A stretch of DNA of 64,000 bases from assembly GCF_054482525.1 (NCBI RefSeq), contig NZ_CM137006.1, one strand, 5' to 3'. Positions within the stretch are counted from its first letter, which is position 1; every line of letters starts with the position of its first letter. The notes beneath the pieces are model-generated. The model did not search any database. It saw only the letters and a list, made by a program, of their open reading frames with translations, and was not told where the DNA came from. The translations under genes were made by a program, and so were the position numbers. Positions 25,566 through 46,781 of the stretch are shown piece by piece.

Positions 25566-25896
25566 ATCAGCAGCAGAGCGCAAAGCCGCTCAGAGAGCCA
25601 GACAAGCTGCATCTGGTGTGCGTAAGCTGGAGATTGTGCTTGATGCTCAGGAAATTGAAATGCTTGAGCGTAACTGTGCCGCACGTCGCCCCGGGCGTGC
25701 GCCTTACGAATTTGGTGAGTATATAGCGTTACTGATCCGCCAGGATGATGCACGCGTGCGCGGGCGTATAAAATCGATCAGTAGAAAACGTTGCGGTAAG
25801 TGCGGCGAGAGAGTTCCCGTTAATTCATGCCCGTGTAATGGTGACTCGCAATGCTGGGTGACTAAAGGCTGGTATGAAACGAAATTAATAGTGTGA
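25558..25896 (+). CDS. Hypothetical protein with basic N-terminal helix and C-terminal Cys cluster, last gene before the packaging operon
   Basis: 112 aa with AERKAAQRARQAASGVRKLEIVLD and CGKCGERVPVNSCPCNGDSQC. The stop codon lies inside the palindrome at 25893. Confidence 0.5.
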   Translation: MAKSAAERKAAQRARQAASGVRKLEIVLDAQEIEMLERNCAARRPGRAPYEFGEYIALLIRQDDARVRGRIKSISRKRCGKCGERVPVNSCPCNGDSQCWVTKGWYETKLIV

Positions 25897-25904
25897 CATG
25901 TCAC
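25893..25904. repeat. Palindrome GTGACATGTCAC, copy 1
   Basis: A perfect 12-bp palindrome overlapping a stop codon, about 40 nt before a terminator. Confidence 0.7.
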
Positions 25905-25945
25905 GAGTAGATTATGCATGATGAATTTGACGGGTTTTGAATACT

Positions 25946-25971
25946 GCCGCCAACTATGGCGGCTTTATTTT
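25946..25971 (+). terminator. Intrinsic terminator ahead of terS
   Basis: GCCGCC-aactat-GGCGGC is followed by TTTATTTT. Confidence 0.75.
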
Positions 25972-25981
25972 GCATGGTACT

Positions 25982-25998
25982 ATTACCACAACGGTAAC
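25982..25998. promoter_or_regulatory. Dyad site O9 (ATTACC-ACAAC-GGTAAC)
   Basis: Perfect dyad between the terminator and terS. A degenerate repeat, ATTACCACGGTGGTTAT, follows at 26000-26016. Confidence 0.55.
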
Positions 25999-26014
25999 TA
26001 TTACCACGGTGGTT

Positions 26015-26611
26015 ATGATGCCTGCTGAACCTAAAACCTATAAACGCAAATCAACGCAATTTAAGCCACTAACAGCAATGCAGGAGGCTTATTGCCAGTC
26101 ATACATCAAAACGCCTGAAAACCAGACTCAGGCAGCGATTAACGCAGGATTCTCCCCAAATACAGCGGCAGTTAAAGCCAGTGTCATGATGCGCGATGAA
26201 CGCATTCAGAAACGGATTGCCGAGTTGATGGAGGAGCGCAACAAACGAATGCGCGTCAGTGCTGATTACGTTCTCATGCGCCTGGTGGAGATCGACCAGA
26301 TGGACGTTATCGACATCCTCAACGACGATGGGAGCCTTAAACCAATCCGTGAGTGGCCGAAAATCTGGCGCACTACGCTTAGTGGCTTTGATCTGTCATC
26401 GACCATCATGAACATGAACGAGGATTCGATAGAGACAATCCTCAAAAAAATTAAATGGCCTGACAAGGTGAAGAACCTTGAGCTGATTGGTAAGCATGTT
26501 GATGTCAATGCGTTCAAAGAACGTCTGGATGTTAATGTGAATGTGACAATTGCTGATCGCATAGCGGCAGCCAGGAAGAGACTGAAAGAACGTCAGGATG
26601 GCAATCAGTGA
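26015..26611 (+). CDS. terS: Terminase small subunit
   Basis: The start is taken at MMPAEPK. The ORF-track TTG start at 25937 would run through the terminator and operator. The region LTAMQEAYCQSYIKTPENQTQAAINAGFSPNTAAVKASVMMRDERIQKRI is Terminase_2-like. Confidence 0.7.
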   Translation: MMPAEPKTYKRKSTQFKPLTAMQEAYCQSYIKTPENQTQAAINAGFSPNTAAVKASVMMRDERIQKRIAELMEERNKRMRVSADYVLMRLVEIDQMDVIDILNDDGSLKPIREWPKIWRTTLSGFDLSSTIMNMNEDSIETILKKIKWPDKVKNLELIGKHVDVNAFKERLDVNVNVTIADRIAAARKRLKERQDGNQ

Positions 26612-28083
26612 CAGATACAGCGTTATCTCCTGAAGAGCAGTTAATTGAGGATATTGCAGGGTTCACTCACGATCCGCTTGGCTATGCCCTCTATGCGTTC
26701 CCGTGGGGGGAAGAGGGGACTGAACTGGCACATGCTACCGGCCCACGTCAGTGGCAGGCCGATGCGTTCCGAGAGATACGTGATCACCTGCAGAATCCAG
26801 AGACGCGTTATCAGCCGCTTATGCTGGCACGTGCTTCTGGTCACGGTATTGGTAAATCCGCATTCATCTCAATGCTCATCAACTGGGGCATGTCCACTTG
26901 CGAGGATTGTAAGGTCGTGGTGACCGCCAACACCGACAACCAGCTACGAACGAAGACCTGGCCGGAAATTATCAAGTGGTCGAACCTTGCTATCACGAAA
27001 GACTGGTTTACCTGTACCGCTACCGCGATGTACAGCAATGACCCTGGGCACGACAAGCGGTGGCGGGCTGACGCAATACCCTGGTCTGAGCACAACACTG
27101 AGGCATTCGCCGGACTACACAACGAGCGCAAACGCATCATCGTGGTGTTTGATGAAGCGTCGAACATTGCGGATCTGGTGTGGGAAGTTGCCGAGGGTGC
27201 GCTTACGGACGAAGACACTGAGATTATTTGGGTGGCGTTCGGAAACCCTACACGTAACACCGGGCGTTTTCGCGAATGTTTCCGCAAATATAAACACCGC
27301 TGGAAAACTGCGCAGATTGACAGCCGGACGGTGGAAGGCACTAACAAACAGCAGTTGCAGAAATGGGTTGATGACTACGGGGAAGACAGCGACTTCGTTA
27401 AAATCCGTGTGCGTGGCATATTCCCTGATGCATCTGAATTGCAGTTTATCCCTACCGGTCTTACTGACGAGGCAATGAAACGGGTGGTAACCGCTGCGCA
27501 GGTTGCACATGCTCCGGTGATAATCGGCGTTGACCCGGCATACTCCGGCGTTGATGACGCTGTGATATACCTGCGGCAGGGGCTACACAGTAAGGTGCTG
27601 TGGACTGGCAACAAGACTACCGACGATCTGATTATGGCGAAGCGTATCGCTGACTTTGAAGACCAGTATCAGGCTGACGCGGTGTTCATCGACTTCGGTT
27701 ACGGAACCGGTTTGAAGTCAATCGGTGACGGCTGGGGTCGTACATGGCAACTTGTTCCGTTCGGTGGCGCGTCTACTGACCCGCAGATGCTCAACAAGCG
27801 TGGGGAGATGTTCAACTCATGCAAGACATGGCTGAGGCTCGGTGGCATGCTGGATGACCAGGAAACAGCGGACGACCTGTCGGCAGCAGAGTACAAAGTT
27901 CGAGTGGACGGTAAAATCGTTATCGAACCGAAGGAAGATATCAAAGAGCGACTTGGGCGTTCTCCTGGTAAAGGCGATGCGCTACTGCTGACGTTTGCGT
28001 TCCCTGTGTCGAAGCGTCTGCGAATTCCCGGTCAGCAGAACCAGCAAGGCAAGGCCATCACAGATTACGATCCCTATGCTTAA
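26608..28083 (+). CDS. terL: Terminase large subunit
   Basis: 491 aa with a Walker A-like ASGHGIGKS, VVFDEAS (Walker B) and a C-terminal nuclease region. It is coupled to terS. Confidence 0.8.
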   Translation: MTDTALSPEEQLIEDIAGFTHDPLGYALYAFPWGEEGTELAHATGPRQWQADAFREIRDHLQNPETRYQPLMLARASGHGIGKSAFISMLINWGMSTCEDCKVVVTANTDNQLRTKTWPEIIKWSNLAITKDWFTCTATAMYSNDPGHDKRWRADAIPWSEHNTEAFAGLHNERKRIIVVFDEASNIADLVWEVAEGALTDEDTEIIWVAFGNPTRNTGRFRECFRKYKHRWKTAQIDSRTVEGTNKQQLQKWVDDYGEDSDFVKIRVRGIFPDASELQFIPTGLTDEAMKRVVTAAQVAHAPVIIGVDPAYSGVDDAVIYLRQGLHSKVLWTGNKTTDDLIMAKRIADFEDQYQADAVFIDFGYGTGLKSIGDGWGRTWQLVPFGGASTDPQMLNKRGEMFNSCKTWLRLGGMLDDQETADDLSAAEYKVRVDGKIVIEPKEDIKERLGRSPGKGDALLLTFAFPVSKRLRIPGQQNQQGKAITDYDPYA

Positions 28084-28126
28084 TCCGCTGGTGGGGATAA
28101 TGTCGTTGATATCCTCTGGTGAGGAT

Positions 28127-28157
28127 AAAACAAAGCCAGCTCATAGGCTGGCTGTTT
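28127..28157. terminator. Bidirectional terminator between terL and the reverse-strand moron
   Basis: AAAACAA-AGCCAGC-tcatag-GCTGGCT-GTTTGTG. Confidence 0.65.
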
Positions 28158-28170
28158 GTGACATGTCACA
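28157..28170. repeat. Palindrome TGTGACATGTCACA, copy 2 (14 bp here)
   Basis: It contains the same 12-mer as 25893 and 45766. It abuts the terminator and lies 3 nt from the moron stop codon. Confidence 0.7.
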
Positions 28171-28173
28171 GAG

Positions 28174-28596
28174 CTAGAAAATAATTTCATCAAATGCAGC
28201 ATTTATTGCCTTTGCTTCGCTAATGGCGCCTTGTTTATCGACAATAGCTTTTTTACCAAGCACCTCGGCAAGGCACTGTAGCTTCATGTTGTATAAGTGT
28301 TCGCTCATGTAATCATTATCACTTTTTGCTTTAGCGCAAACAGAGCGAGAAATATCAAACACATCGCCTTTTTCCATTTCAGAACGTTGTGCTGTTATCC
28401 AGTCATGGAACGTAACGCTAGTACCATGGTCTTCGCTAAGAGTTAACCCGGTCAGTCCCTCACTCTGAATTACTTCGTAATGCATTTCATTACCAGCAAA
28501 AACGCCATAAAAAACGCAGTCTTCAGCCTGAACGATACGAGAATATTTTAATGGCCATTCATTTAGATACTTAGCCAACATATCAATTGTTTTCAT
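28174..28596 (-). CDS. Hypothetical 140-aa protein (reverse-strand moron, visibly AT-rich)
   Basis: A clean ORF with SD AAGGTGAGATC before the ATG. I recognise no motif in it. Its orientation is opposite to the packaging and structural genes. Confidence 0.6.
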   Translation of the reverse strand: MKTIDMLAKYLNEWPLKYSRIVQAEDCVFYGVFAGNEMHYEVIQSEGLTGLTLSEDHGTSVTFHDWITAQRSEMEKGDVFDISRSVCAKAKSDNDYMSEHLYNMKLQCLAEVLGKKAIVDKQGAISEAKAINAAFDEIIF

Positions 28597-28607
28597 GATC
28601 TCACCTT

Positions 28608-28631
28608 AAAAAAATGCCCGGCGAACCGGGC
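28608..28631 (-). terminator. Terminator-like hairpin immediately 5' of the moron gene
   Basis: On the minus strand, GCCCGG-ttcg-CCGGGC is followed by ATTTTTTT, ending 12 nt before the ATG at 28596. Confidence 0.5.
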
Positions 28632-28709
28632 GAACTGGAAGCAATGAGTTATGCCTTCCGTGGCTGTACGGGTTTACAGCATGAAGTCATCGCAATGGCG
28701 TCCTGCTGT

Positions 28710-28751
28710 AAAAAGGGCGGTGATAGTCCTTCAAGGGAAACCATCACCGCC
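28710..28751 (-). terminator. Terminator downstream of the tRNA
   Basis: On the minus strand, a GGCGGTGAT ... ATCACCGCC stem is followed by CTTTTT. Confidence 0.6.
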
Positions 28752-28794
28752 AAGCACCTGGAACTTCTGGCATCACGGTCCTTAGGCGTGATTC

Positions 28795-28871
28795 TGGCGC
28801 GGCATGCAGGATTCGAACCTGCGACCAACCGCTTAGAAGGCGGTTGCTCTGTCCAACTGAGCTAATGCCAC
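28795..28871 (-). tRNA. tRNA-Arg (anticodon UCU), 77 nt with encoded CCA
   Basis: Hand-folded cloverleaf: acceptor GTGGCAT/ATGCCGC, D arm GCTC-AGTTGGACA-GAGC, anticodon arm ACCGC-CTTCTAA-GCGGT, T arm GCAGG-TTCGAAT-CCTGC, discriminator G, then CCA. Confidence 0.85.
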
Positions 28872-29192
28872 AACGCTGAGAGCACTTAGCCTGTTAAGGC
28901 GCCACACTTTGTCGCGGCTCCATAAATGCTCTCATCGTTGTACCCTCGTCTCTTCCGAGGTGTCACACCGAATCGCCGGGATGGTGAATCCCCGTGCGCG
29001 GAATAAAACCGCTCGACTTGCACATTCCGGCTACCTGGTTCGTTTGCCCGAGCAAGGGAGGGTGCCCCTTAAACGTATCCAGACCGCTATCGGCGCATGT
29101 GCCATACGCCGTACTGCTCAAAATAAAAGCTCACCCCACCTGTTCAATTTAACGACAAGCCAGTCAGATTAGTAACTGGAGTGAATTCTTTG

Positions 29193-29209
29193 GTTACCTG
29201 AAAGGTAAT
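29193..29209. promoter_or_regulatory. Dyad site O10 (GTTACC-TGAAA-GGTAAT)
   Basis: Perfect dyad between the leftward tRNA unit and the rightward structural operon. Confidence 0.55.
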
Positions 29210-29298
29210 AATTCGTGCGTTAAATGTCAACTGTCTACGATAAATAAATCATATGTGGTTAAATTGGTAATAATTTAATTGCGTACGGAGTCATTGAT

Positions 29299-29505
29299 AT
29301 GTGCATGGGTAGCTCACCATCAGTGCCTGCAACACCAGAAGTTCAGGCAGCACCACAGGAGCAGGATGCCGCCGTTGTTGATGCCCGCGACGAAGAAACT
29401 CGTCGCCGTCGCGCTGCTGCTGGTCGTAGTTCTACGCTGCTTACCGGTTCTCAGGGCGACACATCAACCGCTAATACCAGCGGTAAAACGCTGCTTGGTC
29501 AGTAA
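29299..29505 (+). CDS. Small conserved protein upstream of the portal gene (hypothetical)
   Basis: 68 aa, ending RRRRAAAGRSSTLLTG...GKTLLGQ. It is the first gene of the structural operon. Confidence 0.5.
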   Translation: MCMGSSPSVPATPEVQAAPQEQDAAVVDARDEETRRRRAAAGRSSTLLTGSQGDTSTANTSGKTLLGQ

Positions 29506-29519
29506 CCGGAGTCATTGAA

Positions 29520-31199
29520 ATGGCGGAAACAACTAAAGAGCGATTGAACAAACAGTTCGCACAACTTGAAAGCGAGCGTCAGTCGTTCGAGCCGCACTGG
29601 CGCGAGTTGAGTGATTACATCAACCCGCGTGGTTCCCGCTTTCTGACTTCTGAGGTCAACCGTAACGATCGGCGCAATACACGCATTATTGATTCGACCG
29701 GGACTATGGCGGCGCGCACTCTCGCCAGCGGCATGATGTCAGGCATCACAAGCCCCGCGCGTCCGTGGTTTCGCCTGGCTACGCCAGATCCTGAAATGAT
29801 GGATTATGGCCCTGTTAAGTTGTGGCTTGAGGCAGTTCAGAACCGCATGAACGATATGTTCAATAAGTCGAATCTCTACCAGTCTCTTCCGCAGTTATAC
29901 GGAAGCCTCGGCACATACAGCACTGGTGCAATGGCAGTGCTGGAGGATGACGAGGACATCATTCGCACAATGCCATTCCCGATAGGCAGTTACTACCTGG
30001 CTAACTCACCTCGTGGCAGTGTTGACACCTGTTTTCGCAAGTTCTCTATGACTGTTCGTCAGCTTGTTCAGGAGTTCGGGCTAAATAACGTCAGCGAATC
30101 CGTAAAAAGCATGTGGGAAAGCGGCACCTACGAGAAGTGGATCGAAGTGATGCATTCGGTTTACCCGAACATTGACCGCGATACATCGAAGCTGGATAGC
30201 AAGAACAAGCCATTCAAATCGGTTTATTACGAGGTTGGTGGAGATAACGACAAGTTGTTGCGTGAGTCCGGATTCGATGAGTTTCCAATTATGGCTCCGC
30301 GCTGGGAAGTTAACGGCGAAGATGTTTATGGATCATCATGCCCGGGTATGCTGGCGCTTGGACCTGTTAAGGCATTGCAGCTTCTCCAGAAGCGCAAGTC
30401 GCAGTTGATTGATAAAGCCACCAATCCGCCGATGGTTGCTCCGACTTCCCTCAAGAATCAGCGCGCCTCCCTTCTTCCTGGCGACATCACGTATATCGAT
30501 CAGATTACTGGTCAGGATGGCTTCAGGCCTGCTTATCTGGTTAACCCCAGTACAGCAGATTTGGTGGCAGACATTCAGGACACTCGTCAAATCATTAACA
30601 GCGCCTACTTTGTCGATCTGTTCATGATGTTGCAGAACATCAATACCCGCTCGATGCCTGTTGAAGCGGTGATCGAAATGAAAGAAGAAAAACTTCTGAT
30701 GTTGGGGCCGGTTCTGGAGCGTCTGAACGACGAATGTCTTAATCCTCTCATTGACCGCGCTTTCTCGATGATGGTGCGCAAAAACATGCTGCCGCCACCG
30801 CCTGACGCGATGGAAGGCATGCCCCTGAAGGTCGAATACATTTCCGTCATGGCTCAGGCGCAGAAGTCTATCGGCCTGTCCAGTCTGGCGTCCACGGTTA
30901 ACTTCATTGGTCAACTTGCGCAAGCGAAACCAGAAGCTCTCGACAAACTCAACGTTGATCAGGCGATCGATGCATTCGCTGATATGTCCGGAGTGTCTCC
31001 AACCGTCATTGTTCCGCAGGAACAGGTTGAGCAGGCTCGCCAGCAACGGGCACAGCAACAACAGCAGCAACAAATGATGGCGATGGGGATGGCGGCGGCA
31101 CAGGGGGCCAAGACGCTAAGCGAAGCTAAAACTTCGGATCCGAGTGTGTTGTCAGCTATGGCGAATGCAGTTAGTGGTCAGGGTGGGCAATCACAATGA
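29520..31199 (+). CDS. Portal (head-to-tail connector) protein, T7 gp8-like family
   Basis: 559 aa. The N-terminus KERLNKQFAQLESERQSFEPHWRELSDYINPRGSRF and the Gln-rich C-terminus fit, as does its position after terL. Confidence 0.75.
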   Translation: MAETTKERLNKQFAQLESERQSFEPHWRELSDYINPRGSRFLTSEVNRNDRRNTRIIDSTGTMAARTLASGMMSGITSPARPWFRLATPDPEMMDYGPVKLWLEAVQNRMNDMFNKSNLYQSLPQLYGSLGTYSTGAMAVLEDDEDIIRTMPFPIGSYYLANSPRGSVDTCFRKFSMTVRQLVQEFGLNNVSESVKSMWESGTYEKWIEVMHSVYPNIDRDTSKLDSKNKPFKSVYYEVGGDNDKLLRESGFDEFPIMAPRWEVNGEDVYGSSCPGMLALGPVKALQLLQKRKSQLIDKATNPPMVAPTSLKNQRASLLPGDITYIDQITGQDGFRPAYLVNPSTADLVADIQDTRQIINSAYFVDLFMMLQNINTRSMPVEAVIEMKEEKLLMLGPVLERLNDECLNPLIDRAFSMMVRKNMLPPPPDAMEGMPLKVEYISVMAQAQKSIGLSSLASTVNFIGQLAQAKPEALDKLNVDQAIDAFADMSGVSPTVIVPQEQVEQARQQRAQQQQQQQMMAMGMAAAQGAKTLSEAKTSDPSVLSAMANAVSGQGGQSQ

Positions 31200-31492
31200 C
31201 AGATTACGAAGACGATCAACTGAAAGAAGAAAACGCCCGTAAGCAACGTGACATGGCGCAGCGTGAAATTGATGACATTCGCTTTGTCATGAGCAGTGAA
31301 CAGGGGCGTCGCGTTGTCTGGTCGGTGCTGGAGAAAGGCCGTGTGTTTTCCGCTATCTCACCGATGGACGCTATGGCAATGGCATTTAATGAGGGGCAAC
31401 GCAATCTGGCGCTGGAACTGTTTCAGCGCGTTATGGCGCATTGCCCTGAACAGTATTTGAAGATGGCCAAAGAGGCCAGTGAACAGGAGTGA
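31196..31492 (+). CDS. Hypothetical protein
   Basis: A 98-aa ORF, coupled to the neighbouring genes. Confidence 0.5.
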   Translation: MTDYEDDQLKEENARKQRDMAQREIDDIRFVMSSEQGRRVVWSVLEKGRVFSAISPMDAMAMAFNEGQRNLALELFQRVMAHCPEQYLKMAKEASEQE

Positions 31493-31494
31493 TC

Positions 31495-32190
31495 ATGAAT
31501 TTATTTGAGCGTTTGCTGTATCGCCGTCTTTGCAATGAGCAACCAGTCGATGGTGGAGCAGCTCCGGCTGCGTCAGAACCGTCAGCGCCTGCAGGTGATA
31601 ACCATGCTCCAGTTGGTGATCCATCACAACCGGAAGGTGATAAGTCACAACCTGTTGCTGATGGCGATAAACCTGCTGATGACAAAAATCCTGAAAACGA
31701 TAAGCAGGATGAAAAAAAGGACGGCGATAAACCAGAGGGTGCGCCTGAGAAGTACGAGTTTCAGGCTGCCGAAGGCGTAGAGCTGGATACAGAAGCGTTG
31801 AAGGAATTCGAGCCGGTGGCGCGAGAACTAAACCTGACCAACGAGCAAGCGCAAAAGCTGGTTGATGCTTATCCGAAGATTCTGGCAGGTGTTCAGCAGC
31901 GCCAGGTAGAAGCCTGGCAGAAAACAACCGAGCAGTGGGCTGCGGATGTAAAAGCTGACAAAGAAATCGGTGGCGACAAGTTGATTTCTAACCTTAGCGC
32001 CGCACAGCGTGCGCTTGACCAGTTCGGGACACCTGAACTCAAAGAATATCTGAACACCACCGGGCTGGGTAATCACCCTGATCTGGTCAAAACGTTCGTG
32101 AAAATCGGAAAGGCGATGTCTGAAGATGGCATGGTCACCGGTGGTAATGAAGGCCAGCGTAGTGCGGCCGAAGTGCTCTATGGCAAATAA
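31495..32190 (+). CDS. Scaffolding protein (putative)
   Basis: An acidic, low-complexity N-terminal half with a helical C-terminal half, placed directly upstream of the major capsid gene. ACAGGAG lies 5 nt before the ATG at 31495. Confidence 0.55.
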   Translation: MNLFERLLYRRLCNEQPVDGGAAPAASEPSAPAGDNHAPVGDPSQPEGDKSQPVADGDKPADDKNPENDKQDEKKDGDKPEGAPEKYEFQAAEGVELDTEALKEFEPVARELNLTNEQAQKLVDAYPKILAGVQQRQVEAWQKTTEQWAADVKADKEIGGDKLISNLSAAQRALDQFGTPELKEYLNTTGLGNHPDLVKTFVKIGKAMSEDGMVTGGNEGQRSAAEVLYGK

Positions 32191-32198
32191 GAGAGGAA

Positions 32199-33191
32199 AT
32201 GACAATGGCTGTTAAAGGCTTAACTGCGCTAACGCTGGCTGACTGGGGTAAGCGCGTCGATCCAAACGGGAAAGTCGATAAGATTATCGAGCTTCTCGGT
32301 CAAACTAACCCGATCCTTCAGGATATGCCTTTTGTCGAAGGGAACCTTCCTACCGGACACCGAACCACTATTCGTTCTGGTTTACCTTCAGCTACCTGGC
32401 GTTTGCTGAACTATGGCGTACAGCCAAGCAAATCAACCACAGTGCAGGTAACCGATTCCGTTGGCATGCTGGAAACCTATGCGGAAGTCGATAAGTCACT
32501 GGCTGATCTGAACGGCAATACCGCCGAATTCCGCCTGTCTGAAGACCGCGCATTTATTGAAGCGATGAATCAGCAGATGGCGCAGACGCTGTTTTATGGT
32601 GATTCCAGCGTTAACCCTCAGCAGTTTATGGGACTGTCCTCCCGCTATTCCAGCCTGTCTGCGGGTAATGCTCAGAATATCATTGATGCTGGTGGCACGG
32701 GTACAGATAACACCTCAATCTGGTTAGTGGTGTGGGGCGAAAACACCGTGCATGGCATCTTCCCGAAAGGGCAGAAGGCTGGCATCCAGATGGAAGATAA
32801 AGGCCAGGTGACACTGGAAGATGCTAATGGCGGCAAGTACGAAGGCTATCGCACCCATTACAAATGGGATAACGGACTTGCTCTGCGTGACTGGCGTTAT
32901 GTTGTTCGCATTGCAAACATCGATGTCAGCAATCTTTCAGAACCATCCTCTGCCGCAAATATTGCGAAGTTGATGGTTAAAGCACTACATCGCATTCCAA
33001 ACCGTGGCATGGGCCGCCCGGTGTTCTACATGAACCGCACTGTAGGCCAGGCTCTTGATCTGCAGTCTCTGGAGAAAACATCTCTGGCTATCAGCGTAAA
33101 AGAGACAGAAGGCGAGTGGTGGACTTCATTCCGTGGTGTACCAATCCGTGAAACTGATGCGCTTCTGGAAACAGAAGCCCGCGTGGTGTAA
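32199..33191 (+). CDS. Major capsid protein
   Basis: About 330 aa; the likely true start is the ATG at 32205 (MAVKGLT). The call rests on position, size and a strong post-gene hairpin. Confidence 0.7.
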   Translation: MTMAVKGLTALTLADWGKRVDPNGKVDKIIELLGQTNPILQDMPFVEGNLPTGHRTTIRSGLPSATWRLLNYGVQPSKSTTVQVTDSVGMLETYAEVDKSLADLNGNTAEFRLSEDRAFIEAMNQQMAQTLFYGDSSVNPQQFMGLSSRYSSLSAGNAQNIIDAGGTGTDNTSIWLVVWGENTVHGIFPKGQKAGIQMEDKGQVTLEDANGGKYEGYRTHYKWDNGLALRDWRYVVRIANIDVSNLSEPSSAANIAKLMVKALHRIPNRGMGRPVFYMNRTVGQALDLQSLEKTSLAISVKETEGEWWTSFRGVPIRETDALLETEARVV

Positions 33192-33207
33192 CGCCTGTTA
33201 TTAACCT

Positions 33208-33227
33208 GTGGGTCGTAACAGACCCAC
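33208..33227 (+). other. Post-capsid-gene hairpin (possible attenuator)
   Basis: GTGGGTC-gtaaca-GACCCAC, with no T-run. Confidence 0.35.
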
Positions 33228-33242
33228 TAATGGAGAAAGAAG

Positions 33243-33680: not shown

Positions 33681-33690
33681 GGTGATATCG

Positions 33691-34026: not shown

Positions 34027-34042
34027 GCCTCGCGAATCAGAC

Positions 34043-34064
34043 AAGGGGCTTCGGCCCCTTTATT
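34043..34064 (+). terminator. Hairpin with UUCG loop plus T-rich tail
   Basis: AAGGGGC-ttcg-GCCCCTT-TATT. Confidence 0.5.
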
Positions 34065-34076
34065 GCAGGAGTGTAT

Positions 34077-38485: not shown

Positions 38486-40998
38486 TGCCAGTCGTACCAA
38501 CAGTATCCGGACGTCAGGTTGAGAGCCGTGGAGTTCAGTCAGCAGGCTTGCAGACGTTTTCTCAGCCAGGTATTGGTGATGCTTTTGTTCGGGCAGGGGC
38601 AGAGGCTATTGATGTTTTTGGTCAGGCAAAACAGCGTGCCAATATCGCTCTGGCTCAGGAGGCATCTCTTAACCTCAGTCAGATAAGCAGTGATCTGCTG
38701 AATAATCCTGAAACAGGATTGCTTAACCTGAAAGGGAAAAATGCTATTGGAAAAGGCCATGAGTATACGCAGCAGTTTGATGCTCAGGTCGAACAACTGG
38801 CTATGTCGCTGCCGGATGAACAGGCTCGTAATGCTTTCATGCAGCAGGCGCAGCAGCAGCGCATTCAGTTCACTACGCAGGCAGGGCGGCACGAGATAGG
38901 GCAAATAAATGCCTACGAAGAAGGCCAGTTTCAGGCTACGCTGCTGAACAATGGTAAAAATGCCGCAGCATTGTATGGCGACAACGCCGCATACGTATTG
39001 GCTAATAAGCAAACTTTCCAGCAAATTGAGGATTACGGCATTGCACATGGCTGGAGTGACGAGCAAATCCAGGCCAAGAAAATCGAGTTTAAAGAAGCAA
39101 CAGCAAAAGCAACTGCTCAAAATGCTATTGGAGCAAACTATCTTCAGGTAAGACAGCAAAACGGCGAGTTAAGCGATACTGCTGCTGGATCTCGCCGTGC
39201 TGTAGCAGATAGTGGCTCTTTCGATCGTACCCGCGGTATACGCAACAATAACCCCGGCAATCTTGAATACAGCAAAACTAATCCGTGGGTTGGGCAGACA
39301 GGTGATGATGGTCGCTTTGCTAAATTCGAAACACCTGAACACGGTATTCGTGCATTAGGGCGGAACCTGATGTCGTATCAGCGGCAGGGTATTGATACCG
39401 TCAGCGAGATAATTAATCGCTGGGCACCGCCCACTGATAAAAATGACACAATGTCGTATATCAAAGCAGTGTGCGAACAACTTGGCGTTTCTGCTGATGA
39501 GTCTCTCGATGCATCTAATCCGGATACCCTGAAGGCGCTTTGTGCAGCCATTATCCATCATGAAAACGGTAGCCAGCCATACAGTGATCAGCAGTTAACT
39601 GATGGTGTTAGTGCTGCGCTGGGGCTTTCTCAGCTACCGACAAAAAATAAACGTTATACCGGTGTAGCTTGGTTCGATGCTTTAAGTGAATCAGATCAGG
39701 CCAGCGTGTTGCGACAGACTGATGCACTAGCCAGACAACAGCAGGCTGAATATAAAACGATGCTCGACAGCCGGGTTCGCGATGCGACGGCTGCGTATAT
39801 GCGTGGCGTTGAATTTCCTAACCCACCTGGTGAGGATGATTTTATTGCAGCTTATGGAGTCAGAGAAGGAAACCTGCGATATACCGAGTTTAAGAATACG
39901 CAGATCGCCGGACAGTATATAGGCTCTTTCCGCAACATGCCGACAAGCAGCATTACAGCATATGTTGAGCAATTACGCCCGGATACTGGTGATACAGGGG
40001 AGGGGTATGCGGCACGCGCAGCTCTTTATGACAACGTTGTTTCGGCTGCAAATCAGGTGATAAAGCAGCGGCAGTCGGATCCTGTGCAGTTCTCTCTTGC
40101 CTCCGGACAGGCAAAGCCTATCGACATGAGCAATAAGGATAACTTTGGACAGAGCGTTGCCTTGCGTGCCGCTCAGGTCAGTGACCTTGCTAAGTCATAT
40201 GGCACTCCACTGACGTTCTTTTCCAAAGACGAGGCCAATCAGATCGGTGTTTTCTTTCGTGATGCTCCAGTTTCCCAACAGGCAGCATATCTCGATACCA
40301 TCAGGCAGAGCACTGGTGGTGGGCAGGTGTATATGTCAGCACTACAGCAGATCAGTGCCAACGCTCCATCTGCTGCCGTTGCCGGGATACTGATGGATAA
40401 GCCTGGTGGTATTTTGGCAGAAAAAAACTGGTTTAATCCGGATGTTTCCGTGTCTCCTGAAACCGCTGCGCAGACAATTCTTGCTGGCGCGGCGGCTCGT
40501 AAAGGTACTGATGATGCGAAAGGTATTCCGATGCCTAAAGATGCTGATCTTCGCCTTGAGTTTTCTGACATGGTGAAGGATGCATTTGCTGGTGACGCTC
40601 AGGGGGCATCAATGGCATACGAGATCGCAAAGGATTATTACGCTGGTGTGATGGCGAAAAAAGGCGTGGTATCAGGCGAAATTGACAATGATGTCTGGAA
40701 ACAGGCTGTTAACGTAGCTACAGGTGGCGTGCATGACTATAACGGAATGGGGAATGTCCTTTTGCCGTGGGGAATGTCTGCAGAGCAATTCGATAAGCAG
40801 GTTAATCAGGCTTGGAATGAACAAGTTGTCGGCTCTGGGATAAAAACACCGCCTGGTCAGTATGGTTTGCAAAGTTACGGCGATAGTCAGTACCTGGTGA
40901 AACTTGGTACTGGTTATCTGCTGAAAGATGATGGTTCTCCCGTTGTTCTTAATCTGACACAGAAGCGTCAGAGATTCTCCGGAGATATTCCGCAATGA
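38485..40998 (+). CDS. Large internal virion (ejection/core) protein with possible muralytic segment
   Basis: 837 aa starting at MPVVPTVSGRQ. The segment RGIRNNNPGNLEYSKTNPWVGQ...FAKFETPEHGIRALGRNLMSY...INRWAPPTDKNDT resembles a virion-associated cell-wall-acting domain that I recall from other phages. Confidence 0.5.
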   Translation: MPVVPTVSGRQVESRGVQSAGLQTFSQPGIGDAFVRAGAEAIDVFGQAKQRANIALAQEASLNLSQISSDLLNNPETGLLNLKGKNAIGKGHEYTQQFDAQVEQLAMSLPDEQARNAFMQQAQQQRIQFTTQAGRHEIGQINAYEEGQFQATLLNNGKNAAALYGDNAAYVLANKQTFQQIEDYGIAHGWSDEQIQAKKIEFKEATAKATAQNAIGANYLQVRQQNGELSDTAAGSRRAVADSGSFDRTRGIRNNNPGNLEYSKTNPWVGQTGDDGRFAKFETPEHGIRALGRNLMSYQRQGIDTVSEIINRWAPPTDKNDTMSYIKAVCEQLGVSADESLDASNPDTLKALCAAIIHHENGSQPYSDQQLTDGVSAALGLSQLPTKNKRYTGVAWFDALSESDQASVLRQTDALARQQQAEYKTMLDSRVRDATAAYMRGVEFPNPPGEDDFIAAYGVREGNLRYTEFKNTQIAGQYIGSFRNMPTSSITAYVEQLRPDTGDTGEGYAARAALYDNVVSAANQVIKQRQSDPVQFSLASGQAKPIDMSNKDNFGQSVALRAAQVSDLAKSYGTPLTFFSKDEANQIGVFFRDAPVSQQAAYLDTIRQSTGGGQVYMSALQQISANAPSAAVAGILMDKPGGILAEKNWFNPDVSVSPETAAQTILAGAAARKGTDDAKGIPMPKDADLRLEFSDMVKDAFAGDAQGASMAYEIAKDYYAGVMAKKGVVSGEIDNDVWKQAVNVATGGVHDYNGMGNVLLPWGMSAEQFDKQVNQAWNEQVVGSGIKTPPGQYGLQSYGDSQYLVKLGTGYLLKDDGSPVVLNLTQKRQRFSGDIPQ

Positions 40999-42797
40999 GT
41001 TACTTTGGCCTTAATCCAGTAAACCAGAATCAGCAGCTTGACGAAGCAGCATCAAATCCAGCTGGCTTTAACAGCGATGTTGGTTTTTTCGACAATGCTG
41101 TAGGAGCGGCATTGTCTGGTTTGTACTCCGGGCTGGTGGCAAAGCCAGATCAGTTGCTATGGGCAGGGATGGATAAAATCGTATCCCCGATTGCTCAGTT
41201 TGTTAACGAAAACACCTCGCTCAATGATACTTCAGTTTCATACATTGCCGAGCAGAGAAAACTAGCAGAGCAGCAGGTTAAGCGGCTGACGCCTGATGCC
41301 GCGACAACCGGAACCGCTGGGCAGGTTCTTTATGGGTTGTTCGATATGGGCGGGCAGGCTGTTGTCGGTACAACGCTCGGTGGTCCTGTCGGAGGTGCAG
41401 CGGCGGTAACTTCGCTACAGGGTTTTTCTGAGTTTGAACGGCTGACAGCACAGGGTGTTGATTTCAGGACGGCGCAGGAAGCGGGATTAGTGCAGGGCAT
41501 TACTGCTGGTGCCGGAACGCTGATCCCTATGAGCCTCGGGTTACGTGCTGGTGGTGCGCTGGCGGAAGGTGTGGCGGCTCAGCTTGCGCGGACGGGTGAG
41601 AGTTCAGTGCGACGCGCCGCAGCAACAGCAGTACGTGCAACGCCAGATATTGCCTATGCCGCAGGTACAAATATTGCGTTCGGTATGGCACAGCGTGGGC
41701 TTACTGCAAAAACACTTCGTGATGGTGGCTATAGCGAAATGGCTAACCAGTATGATGTGTTGGATCGACAGGCAATTGCTATTGATGCTGTTCTTGGGGT
41801 GGCGTTTGGTGGTGTCGGCAGATTTATTAACTCTCGCGGCGAGTCTACAAACGCACCAAATTTTTCACCAGTTGATATCGATGCTGCACTGGCGGCGAAT
41901 GCCGCTCATCATGCTGAAATTGATATTGCGCCCGGCGTGCCGATCAACGTGCTTTCGCGCAATTCTCACATTCAGGCTCTGCGAAAAGCTATGTCTGATG
42001 TTAGCCAGGGGAGACCTGTAGACGTTGCCAGCATTGTTGAGTCTGCATCTTTCAGTGAAATTCCTGGGCGCAAGAGTCTGCTGTCTCAGGCAGTTAATGA
42101 GGCTCTGTCATCTGTAGATGATGGAGTAACGGCGCGCGCTATAGAAAATCGGTTGCTTGAAGAACAGGCCGCGCAGCTTTTGCCGCGTGGAGATAGACAG
42201 GTTTACCAGTCTGAAATCGCTAATAGCCAACGAATTATTGAAAATCTCACTGAACAGCGTGCACAAATTCTTGCAGAAGAGCCAACCGGTAGCGGTAAAG
42301 CTTTGTCTCGTGCTCGATCAGATAAACAGGCCAGACTTCGCGATATTGATCAACGAATCCGGCAGGCACAAGAACGCCTGGAATTTTCCCGTAACGCGTT
42401 GGCACCGCACGAGCCTGGCGGTCAGTTTTTTGAAGCTCGAGCAGAACTGGCTCGGAGACAGCAGGCAGAAAGTGAACTTAATGCTCAGGCTGTTTCATTC
42501 TATAAAACAGCAGAGGTCAGGACGCCAGACGAAGTAGCTCCTTTTGAGCCTGATAAAATATTGCAACAGGCAGAACAAAAAATGATGTCAGATCAGGCAG
42601 GAGATATTGATCTGCGCATAGCTGAAGACTCGCTGCTTGAATCACCTGACATGATAATCACCGTGCTGGATGATGATGGTAATCCACAATCGCGCAGTGC
42701 GCGTGAAGTACTGGATGAAGCGAACAGGGAAAGTGAGCAGGCAATACAGGATTCCAGCCTGTTTGATGTTGCTGTGGCGTGTTTCTTGAGAGGTTAA
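40995..42797 (+). CDS. Large internal virion (ejection/core) protein
   Basis: 600 aa with an Ala/Gly-rich N-terminal half and a coiled-coil C-terminal half. Confidence 0.5.
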   Translation: MSYFGLNPVNQNQQLDEAASNPAGFNSDVGFFDNAVGAALSGLYSGLVAKPDQLLWAGMDKIVSPIAQFVNENTSLNDTSVSYIAEQRKLAEQQVKRLTPDAATTGTAGQVLYGLFDMGGQAVVGTTLGGPVGGAAAVTSLQGFSEFERLTAQGVDFRTAQEAGLVQGITAGAGTLIPMSLGLRAGGALAEGVAAQLARTGESSVRRAAATAVRATPDIAYAAGTNIAFGMAQRGLTAKTLRDGGYSEMANQYDVLDRQAIAIDAVLGVAFGGVGRFINSRGESTNAPNFSPVDIDAALAANAAHHAEIDIAPGVPINVLSRNSHIQALRKAMSDVSQGRPVDVASIVESASFSEIPGRKSLLSQAVNEALSSVDDGVTARAIENRLLEEQAAQLLPRGDRQVYQSEIANSQRIIENLTEQRAQILAEEPTGSGKALSRARSDKQARLRDIDQRIRQAQERLEFSRNALAPHEPGGQFFEARAELARRQQAESELNAQAVSFYKTAEVRTPDEVAPFEPDKILQQAEQKMMSDQAGDIDLRIAEDSLLESPDMIITVLDDDGNPQSRSAREVLDEANRESEQAIQDSSLFDVAVACFLRG

Positions 42798-42802
42798 ATT
42801 AA

Positions 42803-45277
42803 ATGAGACAGGAATGTATACAAGCGGTCCAGCAGGCGGCGCAGCGCACGTTAACGGCGCGAGAAATACAGAACATTGAAGACCGCATTTATCGAAATAT
42901 GCGCTCCATTGCTCGTGATGACCCGATGTCGTGGCGACAACTTTCCGAATCAGAACGGTTGTATCGTGCAGCACAATTGGCATCTGAAGAATTACAGCGA
43001 GAAGCGGCATTAAAGAAACGTCGTGTGGCCCTCACTATAGCCGCACGTCAGAGATTGGATAAATTTATCAATAGCTATCAAGGGGCTGATGGGAAACTTG
43101 GCGCTCTTAACCGTACTATTGCTTTTAATGCAGACGGTAAATCGAATTTCCTCTCTGTTGAATCCAGAACAAAAGCCACCCGTGATTATGCATTGAGTCA
43201 ATTGCAGGAGGCATTCGAAGCAGTTGATCCTCGCTTTTTTGGTCTGTTTGAAGATGAAGCGGGCGTACGTGACCTGATATATGAAATGCGGGGGCAAAAT
43301 ACTGGCAATGCTAAAGCAAGAAAAGGTGCTAAGGCGTGGAGAGAAGTTACAGAGCTGCTGCGCCGCCGGTTTAATGATGCTGGTGGGGACATTGGCTATC
43401 TCGAAAACTGGGGGATCCCTCAACATCATTCTATGGAAAAGGTTGGGGCGGTATCAAAAGATAAATGGGTTAGCGATGTTATAGGTAAGCTGGATCGCAA
43501 ATATTATACCCGAGCCGATGGACAACTGATGAACGATGCCGAGTTGTCTGCATTTCTTGGAGAGGCTTATAACACGATCGCTACTGGTGGGCTGAATAAG
43601 CTTACTGATACCGGAATGCGAATTTCCGGCGCACGTGCTAACCGTGGTAATGCATCACGACAGATACATTTCAAAGATGCAGATTCCTATCTGCAATATC
43701 AGCAACTTTATGGCGATCGCTCTCTATGGGAAATCATGGTCGGTCACCTGGAAGGTATCAGTAAAGATATTGCACTGGTGGAAACATATGGTCCAAACCC
43801 CGATCATGTTTTCCGCTCTCTTCTTGATCAGGTGAAGGCAGAAACGGCAACAGCTAACCCGAGTAAAACCGGTAAAGTCGAGCGGCTGGCGAACAACACA
43901 GAGAATCTGTACAACTTTATTTCCGGAAAGACACAGCCTGTAGCGAATCCGCACATCGCGCGATGGTCTGACAATATCCGCAACTGGCTGGTTGCCAGCA
44001 GACTCGGATCCGCGTTGCTGTCATCGTTCTCTGATCTTGGAACCATGTATCTGTCTGCGAAGGTTACCAACCTTCCAATGAACCAGTTATTCCGCAACCA
44101 GCTTGAAGCTATGGACCCAACGAACCGTACAGAACTTGCGCGGGCGCGCCGCGCTGGTCTGGCGATGGAATCTCTACTTGGCAGCGTTAACCGCTGGGCG
44201 ATGGATAATATGGGGCCGTCTGTGTCTCGTTGGGCTGCAACGGCGGTAATGCGTGCCAGTGGGCTTACAGCATGGTCAGATGCGCACAAGCGCGCCTATG
44301 GCGTAACCATGATGGGAAGCCTGGGAGAAGTAGTGTCACGGACACCAGACCTTCGTCGCCTCGATGACTCTGATTTTCGTATCCTGAAAAGCAAAGGGAT
44401 TACTGACACAGACTGGAGCGTATGGAAGTTGGCGCAACAGGAGGACTGGGGGAACGGTAATAATACGATGCTGACACCGGAAAGCATTATGCGTATCCCT
44501 GATTCAGCAGTTAAACATCTTGGTGAGCCTGAACGCGTGAAATTTGAGGCAATGCGTAAACTGCTCGGTGCCGTAACTGAAGAAGTTGATATGGCTGTTA
44601 TTACACCGGGAGCACGTGAGCAACTGATAACCGGTTCTGGTATTCAGCGTGGAACATGGAAAGGTGAATTAACGAGAAGTGTTTTCCTGTTTAAATCGTT
44701 CCCTATCTCGGTTGTTATGCGTCACTGGTCACGCGCTATGGGTATGCCGTCTGCTGGTGGGCGTGCGGCATATATTGCGACGTTTATTGCCAGTACGACC
44801 ATTCTTGGCGCTTTGTCGCAACAACTTAACGACCTTGCGTCTGGTCGTAATCCTCGAGAGATGACAGGAGAAGATGCTGCTAAATTTTGGCTTGGTGCTC
44901 TACTGAAAGGTGGTGGTCTTGGCCTTTACGGTGACTTTTTATTGTCAGATCACACTAGGTACGGGAGCGGCGCGCTGGCGTCGATGCTTGGCCCGGTAGC
45001 TGGTCTGGTTGATGACGTAGTGAAGATAGCTCAGGGCATACCGCTAAATGCTGTGGAAGGGAAGAGTGAGCAGACTGGTGGTGATCTGGTGAAGCTGGGG
45101 AAAGGTTTGATGCCAGGTGCGAATCTCTGGTACTTGAAGGCGGCTCTCGATCACATGATCTTTAATCAGATGCAGGAGTATTTTTCACCAGGCTATTTGC
45201 GTAAAATGGAGCAACGTTCGAAGAAAGAGTTTAACCAGACATACTGGTGGCGACCTCAGGATGTCACTCCGCAATAA
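42803..45277 (+). CDS. Large internal virion (ejection/core) protein
   Basis: 824 aa with C-terminal hydrophobic segments. Confidence 0.5.
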   Translation: MRQECIQAVQQAAQRTLTAREIQNIEDRIYRNMRSIARDDPMSWRQLSESERLYRAAQLASEELQREAALKKRRVALTIAARQRLDKFINSYQGADGKLGALNRTIAFNADGKSNFLSVESRTKATRDYALSQLQEAFEAVDPRFFGLFEDEAGVRDLIYEMRGQNTGNAKARKGAKAWREVTELLRRRFNDAGGDIGYLENWGIPQHHSMEKVGAVSKDKWVSDVIGKLDRKYYTRADGQLMNDAELSAFLGEAYNTIATGGLNKLTDTGMRISGARANRGNASRQIHFKDADSYLQYQQLYGDRSLWEIMVGHLEGISKDIALVETYGPNPDHVFRSLLDQVKAETATANPSKTGKVERLANNTENLYNFISGKTQPVANPHIARWSDNIRNWLVASRLGSALLSSFSDLGTMYLSAKVTNLPMNQLFRNQLEAMDPTNRTELARARRAGLAMESLLGSVNRWAMDNMGPSVSRWAATAVMRASGLTAWSDAHKRAYGVTMMGSLGEVVSRTPDLRRLDDSDFRILKSKGITDTDWSVWKLAQQEDWGNGNNTMLTPESIMRIPDSAVKHLGEPERVKFEAMRKLLGAVTEEVDMAVITPGAREQLITGSGIQRGTWKGELTRSVFLFKSFPISVVMRHWSRAMGMPSAGGRAAYIATFIASTTILGALSQQLNDLASGRNPREMTGEDAAKFWLGALLKGGGLGLYGDFLLSDHTRYGSGALASMLGPVAGLVDDVVKIAQGIPLNAVEGKSEQTGGDLVKLGKGLMPGANLWYLKAALDHMIFNQMQEYFSPGYLRKMEQRSKKEFNQTYWWRPQDVTPQ

Positions 45278-45286
45278 GGAAGTGTT

Positions 45287-45460
45287 GTGTTTTTAATTAT
45301 TTTGAGTGTGATAATTTCTGGTGGATTGTTATTTATTGACCGCTACAAATATTTTCTTAACCCTCAGACTCAAGCTATTTGCTGGTTCATCTTTGTTGTG
45401 CAGGGAGTAGTTCTTGTTGCAAGCCTTATTGAGGGGAGGCCTCTTATTTTTACTGGGTAA
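45287..45460 (+). CDS. 57-aa two-TM membrane protein (hypothetical)
   Basis: The GTG start has AAGGAAG 4 nt upstream. The sequence is VFLIILSVIISGGLLFIDRYKYFLNPQTQAICWFIFVVQGVVLVASLIEGRPLIFTG. It is below the ORF-track cutoff. Confidence 0.35.
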   Translation: MFLIILSVIISGGLLFIDRYKYFLNPQTQAICWFIFVVQGVVLVASLIEGRPLIFTG

Positions 45461-45472
45461 ATAGGTGACTAC

Positions 45473-45769
45473 ATGCAAGCTATAGGATTCATTGTTTATA
45501 TCGTCGTTGGTCTTTTTCAGTTGGCAGCAATTATGGCTGGGCTTGAATCATGGTGGGGATTGCACTGGATAATTGCAGCCCCCATTGCTTTCATCGTGAG
45601 CTATATTCCATTTGTTGGAGCGATTGTTGGTATGGTTGGCGCTGTGGATGTATGGCGGTGGGAGTGGTGGCAGGCTGGCCTTCTCTTCTTTGGTGGGATC
45701 ATCTTTGCTATTGTCTGCGGTGGAATGTCATCATTTTTCGAATGGCTATCATTCAGAAAAGGGACGTGA
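45473..45769 (+). CDS. 98-aa polytopic membrane protein (hypothetical)
   Basis: It has three to four hydrophobic segments and is Trp-rich (VDVWRWEWWQAG). Confidence 0.55.
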   Translation: MQAIGFIVYIVVGLFQLAAIMAGLESWWGLHWIIAAPIAFIVSYIPFVGAIVGMVGAVDVWRWEWWQAGLLFFGGIIFAIVCGGMSSFFEWLSFRKGT

Positions 45770-45777
45770 CATGTCAC
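45766..45777. repeat. Palindrome GTGACATGTCAC, copy 3
   Basis: It overlaps the stop codon of the 98-aa gene and directly abuts a terminator. Confidence 0.7.
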
Positions 45778-45802
45778 AGGCCGCTTTCGCGGCCTTGTTT
45801 TT
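45778..45802. terminator. Terminator at the end of the structural operon, shared with the convergent small gene
   Basis: AGGCCGC-tttc-GCGGCCT is followed by TGTTTTT. Confidence 0.75.
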
Positions 45803-46755: not shown

Positions 46756-46781
46756 GACATTACCTCATATCTCATAAGTTC

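Follow-up and report, generated by a model that had tools for sequence, protein, structure and literature searches.

The 64,000-nt stretch of contig NZ_CM137006.1 (NCBI RefSeq assembly GCF_054482525.1) that was analyzed here (hereafter, the window) carries, judging from its sequence, an epsilon15/phiV10-type (Uetakevirus) prophage at about 13113–53651, inserted after guaA. Within this prophage the 12-bp palindrome GTGACATGTCAC occurs three times, each time close to a transcription terminator, which raises the question of what the element does. We propose, as the probable answer, that the 12-mer is the core of a 14-bp operator (YGTGAC-NN-GTCACR; Y, pyrimidine; R, purine) for a dimer of a 112-amino-acid (aa) phage protein, encoded by the gene that ends in the first copy, and that this protein acts on RNA polymerase where transcription units end. 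We infer the link between protein and site from their co-occurrence across phages and from the predicted fold of the protein.

An exact search of the window found GTGACATGTCAC only at the three positions given in Table 1, and a search allowing one mismatch returned the same three places and nothing extra. In 100 dinucleotide-preserving shuffles, the number of matches averaged 0.18 and never reached three. Copies 1 and 3 provide the TGA stop codons of two unrelated genes (the open reading frame [ORF] at 25558–25896, which ends in KLIV, and the ORF at 45473–45769, which encodes a hydrophobic protein of 98 aa ending in KGT). Copy 2 is intergenic, with the end of terL at 28083 on one side and a reverse-strand ORF (28174–28596) on the other. 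Hairpins followed by a T-run were found 42, 4, and 0 nt from copies 1, 2, and 3, respectively, and two operators of the form TTACC-N5-GGTAA (at 25983 and 26001), a type that is annotated as the repressor site in epsilon15, stand ahead of terS. The cargo beside copies 2 and 3 is AT-richer than terL (GC content of 0.42 by copy 2 and 0.38–0.41 by copy 3 vs. 0.53–0.56 in terL). All of this agrees with an earlier note on this DNA, which had described the three copies, the stop codons in two of them, the terminators, the operator ahead of terS, and the AT-rich cargo. Its view that conservation acts at the DNA or RNA level, and not at the protein level, is also correct, and DNA fits much better than RNA.

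Homologues of the ORF that ends in copy 1 occur in phages with unrelated virion and replication modules, and GTGAC-NN-GTCAC is heavily over-represented in every gene-carrying lineage that we examined (about eight unrelated backbones, with 1–5 sites per genome where about 0.04 would be expected). In 14 gene-carrying genomes, there were 1–4 such sites per genome, compared to an expected 0.03–0.05, and the N0, N1, and N3–N6 spacings as well as the everted arrangement were essentially absent. The same spacing dominated in 80 gene-carrying loci from IMG/VR (128 N2 sites vs. 0–2 for any other spacing), and 66 sites from these loci lay at offset 0 from the last codon of the gene. PY54, a telomere phage that is related to N15 and does not carry the gene, has no sites, and the host part of the window (23 kb) has none either. 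Judged from these sequences, gene and sites move as one module between unrelated phages.

One site overlaps or adjoins the stop codon of the gene itself in Uetakeviruses, ZF40, N15, phiKO2, Chlobot, and Pseudomonas phages. Uetakeviruses of four host genera carry both the gene and the sites. The Pectobacterium myovirus ZF40, in which the protein is 67% identical, has three exact copies of TGTGACATGTCACA, one of them 3 nt past the stop codon of the gene. N15 and phiKO2 (protein 35% identical) contain GTGACTGGTCAC or its complement three times, in the same three places in both phages (site string GTGACYRGTCAC): on the TGA stop codon of the gene, inside repA, and upstream of the antirepressor operon. 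The P2-like Yersinia phages have an exact site and a one-mismatch site 33 bp apart, and this pair is located at the distal end of a variable cargo slot starting after the gene. Three sites were found in the Vibrio phages K303, PhiPS02, and L334 (with AC, GC, GG, or CC at the centre), one of which always lies just ahead of the terS ribosome-binding site. In an Aeromonas phage, three copies of the variant GTGACCGGACAC stand immediately ahead of Shine-Dalgarno sequences, one of which belongs to the gene itself, and the lambda-like phage Chlobot has a single site, 7 nt past the gene. A distant branch of the family is that of the Pseudomonas phages (among the 25–40% identical members; alignment A4), which have 3–5 exact sites per 10–20 kb locus, including one at the stop codon of the gene itself and another at that of terL.

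Sequence constraint within the site is confined to certain positions. Among the non-redundant sites, the base outside each half-site was Y in 63 of 66, even though the search pattern left that base free, and the centre dinucleotide varied (AT, AG, TG, AC, GC, GG, and CC). Fixed half-sites with a Y flank around a free centre therefore point to YGTGAC-NN-GTCACR as the functional element, and the combination of a Y/R flank with a variable centre is the pattern that would be expected for protein read-out of the half-sites. Across all bacteria, the 14-mer occurs at about chance frequency, and 3 of 120 sampled occurrences were next to the gene; among 120 occurrences sampled from IMG/VR, the gene was within the stretch in 32. 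The site is thus specific only within gene-carrying genomes. When single distant family proteins were used as queries, few or no further loci were recovered. Separately, GTGACATGTCAC-type palindromes are found three times in tandem, with an 18-bp period, in a contig of Candidatus Jettenia ecosi (200–247) and in a second, unrelated contig (2988–3035), some 400 nt upstream of a gene encoding a polysaccharide sugar-transferase and with no gp49-like gene nearby. These look like the operator array of another regulator that uses the same palindrome.

The protein matches PHROG 536 ('transcriptional regulator') and belongs to a family otherwise labelled 'hypothetical'; no Pfam family was found at threshold for the 112-aa sequence. 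With 209 clusters at 50% identity in a set of 1.84 billion representatives, this is a small family, and nearly all members are stand-alone proteins of 100–135 aa. Long fusion proteins, considered as further members, look like gene-calling read-through from upstream genes. In the N-terminal part, 23 of 66 diverse members match NF008671 (LexA-regulated protein YbfE, ribbon-helix-helix [RHH]; best E = 1.5e-5). The window protein itself gives E = 0.046 to this model (14.2 bits; cut-off 62), and scattered matches to RHH_1, RHH_5, RepB-RCR_reg, and NikR occur in a few of the 66 members. In the C-terminal part, the same set yields nine member-level matches to DksA/TraR models of NCBIfam (NF008243, four; NF010268, three; TIGR02419, two), and no match to zf-dskA_traR was reported in Pfam scans of the family. 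When the family profile was compared to PDB, YbiI and TraR (two entries) were the top three matches (E = 0.009–0.015, over residues about 48–108), and hhalign against TraR returned a probability of 81% (E = 1.2e-5, 52 columns). The AlphaFold monomer is a mediocre model (predicted local distance difference test [pLDDT] of 68), but its secondary structure agrees with these two domains and consists of a basic helix, an extended segment at 21–29, helices at 30–43 and 52–75, a cysteine cluster, and a terminal helix; structure-based fold searches with this model found nothing significant. The most economical reading of these matches is a predicted RHH domain for dimerisation and DNA binding, fused to a divergent TraR-like zinc finger.

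The sites recur in related phages. The 12-mer stands at the same three borders in relatives from Escherichia, Salmonella, and Enterobacter, among them ZX5, epsilon15 (Salmonella), and Tyrion (Enterobacter), and all three borders are also occupied in phiV10 and in Salmonella phage PAT1, where copy 2 reads GTGACAGGTCAC. Klebsiella phage BUCT711 has kept copies 1 and 3 and has an extra site inside a virion gene. In relatives, the counterpart of copy 2 lies about 2.2–2.45 kb past the gp49-like gene. At the copy 3 border, the site was kept in phiV10, ZX5, epsilon15, Tyrion, BUCT711, and PAT1, and the left flanks differ among them. The earlier note had named the absence of the 12-mer from equivalent borders in relatives as grounds for giving up its case; relatives keep the site there, and the host flanks of the window have none. 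In these relatives, cargo-side sequence diverges from the first base or within a few bases, and unrelated arms are joined across the palindrome (11 with the gp49-end arm, 6 with the terL-terminator arm, and 3 with the structural-terminator arm). In the copy 2 slot, four of the six cargo arms have in common only 9 nt next to the palindrome, GGTGTTATT, which reads AATAACACC on the cargo strand and holds the TAA stop codons of different reverse genes. Exchange junctions in these four arms are therefore at the stop codon of the cargo gene and not at the palindrome edge. Because flanks exchange while the site stays, site plus terminator form a conserved island amid exchangeable DNA. The palindrome was also considered as a genome end, given that the phiV10 record begins inside it, but this record was simply opened after the gp55 stop codon, and its start is therefore no sign of a cos end.

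Table 1 Features around the palindrome copies, by position in the window (strand given where applicable).
Feature	Position	Strand	Remarks
Candidate binding-protein gene	25558–25896	+	112 aa; epsilon15 gp49 / phiV10 gp55 / N15 gp46 family, PHROG 536
Palindrome copy 1	25893–25904		14-bp form TGTGACATGTCACG at 25892–25905; overlaps TGA stop of the gp49-like gene
Intrinsic terminator, end of early-right unit	25946–25963	+	42 nt past copy 1; hairpin and T-run
Two CI-type repressor operators, TTACC-N5-GGTAA	25983–26015 (at 25983 and 26001)		Just upstream of terS; start of next unit
terL	26608–28083	+	terS just upstream, ends at 26611; terS-terL bracketed by copies 1 and 2
Intrinsic terminator	28134–28153	-	Strong on minus strand (T-run TTGTTTTAT), weak on plus; 4 nt from copy 2
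Palindrome copy 2	28158–28169		Extended form TGTGACATGTCACA; between terL terminator hairpin and stop of reverse cargo gene
Reverse cargo gene	28174–28596	-	140 aa, no family match; transcript order: stop codon, copy 2, terminator
tRNA-Arg gene	28795–28871	-	Anticodon TCT; cargo region between terL and portal operon
Repressor operator	29194–29208		Upstream of portal/structural operon; start of unit after copy 2
Moron	45473–45769	+	98-aa hydrophobic protein; between upstream terminator (45430–45446) and copy 3
Palindrome copy 3	45766–45777		CGTGACATGTCACA; TGA stop of small membrane-protein moron; abuts structural-operon terminator
Intrinsic terminator closing structural operon	45778–45795	+	Directly abuts copy 3; fold z = -2.6
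Leftward accessory/antirepressor island	45801–47831	-	Converges on copy 3
ORFs of leftward island	45801–46034, 46056–46628	-	
Antirepressor ORF	46903–47598	-	
C4 antisense RNA	47646–47731	-	Rfam; just upstream of antirepressor gene
isrK RNA	47756–47831	-	Rfam; just upstream of antirepressor gene
LexA-like box	48194–48209		CTGTATATTTATACAG
Repressor operator	48249–48263		Upstream of tailspike gene (48368–51142); start of unit after copy 3

The region matches podoviruses of the epsilon15/phiV10 type, and Escherichia phage HEMP4 is 100% identical to it over the query. The prophage is bracketed by the 14-bp direct repeat TACAGAGGGTTTTT (13113–13126 and 53638–53651), the left copy of which lies 60 nt past guaA (11476–13053) and ahead of the integrase gene (13246–14496), and this agrees with the published integration site of the relative ZX5. 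Inside the prophage, TTACC-N5-GGTAA occurs 11 times exactly and 17 times at up to one mismatch, compared to 1.3 expected. These operators span 18211–48263 (e.g., 18211, 18273, 18985, 21272, 21334, 25983, 29194, 46816, 47868, and 48249) and precede terS, the portal operon, the antirepressor island, and the tailspike gene. With so many scattered copies, the repressor seems to act directly at many promoters, like C1 of phage P1, and the operators at 25983, 29194, and 48249 give each unit that follows a palindrome its own promoter. Consecutive units thus make up the right arm, and in each of them an operator-promoter is followed by genes and then by a palindrome with a terminator: copy 1 closes the early-right operon, copy 2 closes terS-terL, and copy 3 closes the structural operon. 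At copies 2 and 3, convergent units meet. Across copy 2, terL faces the reverse cargo gene and the tRNA-Arg gene, and across copy 3, the structural operon faces the leftward island, whose C4 antisense RNA, isrK, antirepressor gene, and LexA-like box at 48194 resemble an SOS-linked antirepressor module of the P1 immI kind that runs toward this copy. One product of this island (190 aa, from the minus-strand ORF at 46056–46628) has a weak match to the YafO toxin (E = 7.6e-5; 23.2 bits, below the cut-off of 25). A promoter scan flags GTGACA in all three copies as a -35 hexamer; this is weak, and matching -10 elements are not conserved in relatives.

At such borders, a dimer of the protein would occupy the double-stranded, two-fold symmetric site and would modulate RNA polymerase at the 3′ ends of the three rightward units, and the following unit would restart from its own repressor-controlled promoter. 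Between convergent units, the bound protein may serve as a roadblock or insulator; alternatively, it may be a local factor that raises or lowers the efficiency of the adjacent terminator. We infer that the protein binds the site and that its TraR-like part contacts RNA polymerase there. Beside the sites, terminator-like arms are about 4-fold enriched (11 of 194 vs. 1.35% in controls), and general enrichment of hairpins was not found, with folding energies of the arms no lower than those of controls. The order of a stop codon in the site followed by a terminator recurs independently in the Pseudomonas phages, where the site on the terL stop codon is followed by an intrinsic terminator 9 nt later, and a second site, on the stop codon of another gene, is followed by a bidirectional terminator.

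Several observations weigh against this interpretation, some of them concerning the sites and others the protein. The majority of the non-redundant site arms do not resemble terminators; there are sites deep within genes (N15 repA, ZF40 gp08, and the virion gene of BUCT711) and others directly before ribosome-binding sites (Aeromonas, Vibrio, and N15 gene 47). Copy 1 of phiV10 has one mismatch (GTGACATGTTAC, at 39101), and BUCT711 has no copy 2, its cargo gene overlapping the end of terL without a terminator, so that individual sites can be lost. Within the window, copy 2 lies past the hairpin in the terL direction and before it in the direction of the reverse-strand moron, and one geometry does not fit all three copies. 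With respect to the protein, all domain matches are below curated cut-offs. C79, C82, and C99 align with cysteines 1–3 of TraR, but the fourth ligand position is an invariant threonine (T102), and the C4 pattern CxxC...CxxC is not found in the family; the conserved C91 may substitute as a zinc ligand. The helix equivalent to that of TraR is preceded by the RHH-like domain, and there is no free acidic N-terminus of the kind that TraR requires to act in the channel. Together with the threonine at the fourth ligand position, this makes contact with RNA polymerase uncertain.

The alternative that survives best, which we nevertheless judge unlikely, is that the protein is a Q-like late antiterminator that loads on RNA polymerase at the site, just ahead of a terminator, and promotes read-through from the early-right operon into terS-terL and past later internal terminators; the sites would then be places where an antiterminator loads and not boundary or insulator elements. 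The gene occupies a position like that of lambda Q, closing the set of early genes and directly preceding a terminator and the late genes, and a DNA site is combined with a zinc module that possibly binds RNA polymerase, the TraR-like domain being a conceivable route. By synteny, this Q-type position, directly before a late promoter, terminator, and late genes, is found in Uetakevirus, Vibrio, and Pseudomonas phages, the last two with no Q homologue seen. In a Pseudomonas phage contig (10354–10680, and the same in three more), a strong, near-consensus promoter (TTGACA-17-TACGAT) follows the gp49-like gene; next come a leader, about 190 nt long and containing two intrinsic terminators, and the lysis genes. 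This is a lambda PR′-tR′-like late control region in a phage that has no recognisable Q gene. The site also precedes the hairpin at copies 1 and 3 and the internal terminator after terL in the Pseudomonas phages. However, the Pseudomonas site lies about 70 bp upstream of the -35 element of that late promoter, and transcripts from this promoter thus never cross the site. In the window, each late unit is served by a separate repressor operator and promoter, making read-through unneeded, and antitermination would send antisense transcription into terL from the minus strand at copy 2 and through the antirepressor island at copy 3. N15, phiKO2, ZF40, and Chlobot encode a separate Q-like protein as well. 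In contrast to lambda Q, there is also no promoter-embedded site with a sigma-dependent pause and no sequence similarity to Q families, with no Pfam, NCBIfam, or PDB match of the protein to any of them. Given the separate promoters of the late units and the antisense transcripts that would arise from antitermination at copies 2 and 3, we slightly prefer a boundary or insulator function to a Q-like role; the layouts of the Pseudomonas and Vibrio phages, in which the gene takes the exact place of a missing Q, still lend the Q-like model some weight.

The mosaic junctions raise a further alternative: the palindrome could be mainly a recombination linker for RecE/RecT-type or host systems, with no dedicated binding protein. 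The arms shuffled across the site, with 11, 6, and 3 unrelated partners, the AT-richer cargo beside it, and the RecE/RecT proteins encoded by Uetakeviruses are consistent with this idea, and as a description, the module-exchange junction of the earlier note holds, with one arm joined to 6–11 unrelated arms. As the primary function it does not hold, because sites are also kept inside conserved coding sequence (repA of N15 and phiKO2, and an integrase-like gene of the Pseudomonas phages) and because the Y/R flank is constrained. A free centre between fixed half-sites and flanks fits protein read-out and not homology, an intragenomic repeat would favour deletion of terS-terL, and at copy 2, cargo is joined after GGTGTTATT, 9 nt beyond the palindrome, in four of six cases. 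A linker function also leaves unexplained the co-occurrence with the gene family and the loss of both from PY54, and we regard it as quite improbable. The junctions are probably a by-product, with site and terminator being the only constrained element between exchangeable cargo, and the identical 12–14-mer in many phages may provide a short patch of homology for recombination.

Even less probable, to the point of being a marginal prospect, is that the element acts in RNA, as a hairpin at transcript 3′ ends or before ribosome-binding sites that affects processing, stability, or translation. The copies do lie in transcribed 3′ regions just before terminators, and sites in Aeromonas, Vibrio, N15, and Chlobot phages are located 3–20 nt before Shine-Dalgarno sequences. 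Against this, the 14-nt hairpin has a folding energy of -2.8 kcal/mol, which 57 of 200 shuffled sequences equal, the sequence is strictly conserved without compensatory changes, and no Rfam family matches. The N15-type site has an asymmetric centre and occurs in both orientations relative to transcription, and two-fold symmetry with Y/R flanks fits a dimer on duplex DNA.

We give the least credence, and hardly any, to the possibility that the sites are matS variants for host MatP, or sites for another host factor, that tie phage DNA to the Ter macrodomain or the division machinery. The half-sites are identical to those of matS (GTGACRNYGTCAC, consensus from PMC3603311, the site of MatP in the E. 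coli Ter macrodomain), with the same two-fold symmetry, and most host taxa belong to Enterobacterales and Vibrio, both of which have MatP. MatP also uses an RHH domain. Vibrio phages K303 (19491–19503) and PhiPS02 (14562–14574) each contain, besides their 12-bp sites, one true 13-bp matS consensus, GTGACACCGTCAC (about 0.01 expected per genome), at the stop codon of the same small gene. The spacer, however, is 2 bp and not 3 bp in each of more than 160 sites, and N3 is absent from the enterobacterial genomes examined. The sites are not restricted to Ter: the prophage follows guaA, which lies outside the Ter macrodomain, and the same N2 motif and gene are present in Pseudomonas phages, whose hosts are not known to have MatP. 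The motif follows the phage gene and not the host, as the PY54 control indicates. No homology was detectable when family profiles A1 and A4 were compared by hhalign to E. coli MatP (0.2% and 0.4% probability, respectively; MatP sequence verified against PDB entry 4D8J; a further MatP structure is 3VEA). Moreover, no 13-bp matS was found in 500 prophages, in which matS is apparently counter-selected (PMC3603311). Of the two kinds of binding protein that the earlier note had allowed for, a phage protein is therefore favoured, with the protein whose gene has its end in copy 1 as the candidate, and a host protein at matS is not.

Other known sites can be set aside briefly. A packaging signal, which the earlier note had also considered, is contradicted by three copies over 20 kb (at least three copies per genome), by many sites far from the terminase genes, and by the presence of the motif in cos phages (N15, phiKO2, and a phage with lambda-like terminase), in N15 and phiKO2 far from cos and inside repA. 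The CRP consensus is TGTGA-N6-TCACA, and copy 2, which reads TGTGA-CATG-TCACA, has N4; the SlmA consensus, GTGAGTACTCAC, has conserved A-G and C-T at positions 4–5 and 8–9, where positions 5 and 8 here are C and G. FNR and LexA sites were rejected on spacing or sequence (LexA-like boxes occur elsewhere, e.g., at 48194), and the annotated SopB sites of phiKO2, as N15-type partition sites, have a different sequence, GTGCGACCACGGTCGCAC.

Operators of dimeric phage regulators are well known, and the predicted domains of the candidate recall two established groups. In its basic N-terminal stretch, a strand-like RKLEIVL segment, and two helices, it would resemble RHH repressors (CopG, Arc, and MetJ, as well as YbfE [NF008671]). 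As obligate dimers, RHH proteins recognise short sites with symmetry, and a palindromic operator would fit this. The strand is not formed in the monomer model, however, all matches are sub-threshold, and classical RHH operators are usually arrays at promoters, whereas the sites described here are single and located at gene 3′ ends beside terminators. The second group is TraR/DksA (F-plasmid TraR, lambda Orf73, and E. coli YbiI): residues about 48–108 align with almost all of TraR, including a CxxCG..(I/L)P..G...C zinc knuckle and the long helix that precedes it. Members of this group carry a C4 zinc finger, enter RNA polymerase's secondary channel, and act globally on initiation, whereas the protein described here is tied to specific sites and differs in its N-terminal domain of DNA-binding type, in the threonine in place of the fourth cysteine, in the conserved C91, and in having no free acidic tip. 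The position of the site on the gene's own stop codon suggests an analogy to lacI, where an operator (O3) over the 3′ end of the gene is said, in work by Abo et al. from 2000, to act as a roadblock and to allow autoregulation by truncated transcripts; by this analogy, which goes no further, the bound protein could halt polymerase on the transcript of its own gene. Small TraR homologues are common in phages and plasmids and bind RNA polymerase and not DNA (PMC9239242, PMC6970531), and a paper on TraR homologues does not mention RHH-TraR-like fusions.

The motif strings were not found in the literature that was searched, nor does the literature examined describe the combination of RHH and TraR-like domains, an operator that overlaps the stop codon of its regulator's gene, or the placement near terminators across many phage types. 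It is possible, although this is a tentative and less-than-likely extension of the operator hypothesis, that the gp49/gp46 family constitutes a new class of transcription factor in which a TraR/DksA-like module, tethered by RHH domains at sites before intrinsic terminators, is brought to elongating polymerase at fixed positions, tunes termination locally by suppressing or enforcing it, and provides the early-late switch in Uetakevirus, Vibrio, and Pseudomonas phages that have no Q. Epsilon15-type phages are known for their structure and for serotype conversion, and their late regulation is little understood. The pair of protein and operator spans podo-, myo-, and siphovirus backbones and at least four host orders, and can be tested directly. 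If the TraR-like half contacts RNA polymerase, the protein would be the first site-directed member of the family of secondary-channel factors, and would represent a new phage route to delimit or read through transcription units. For genome annotation, the 14-mer may serve as a mark of unit ends and of the cargo slots in which defence and moron genes are swapped.

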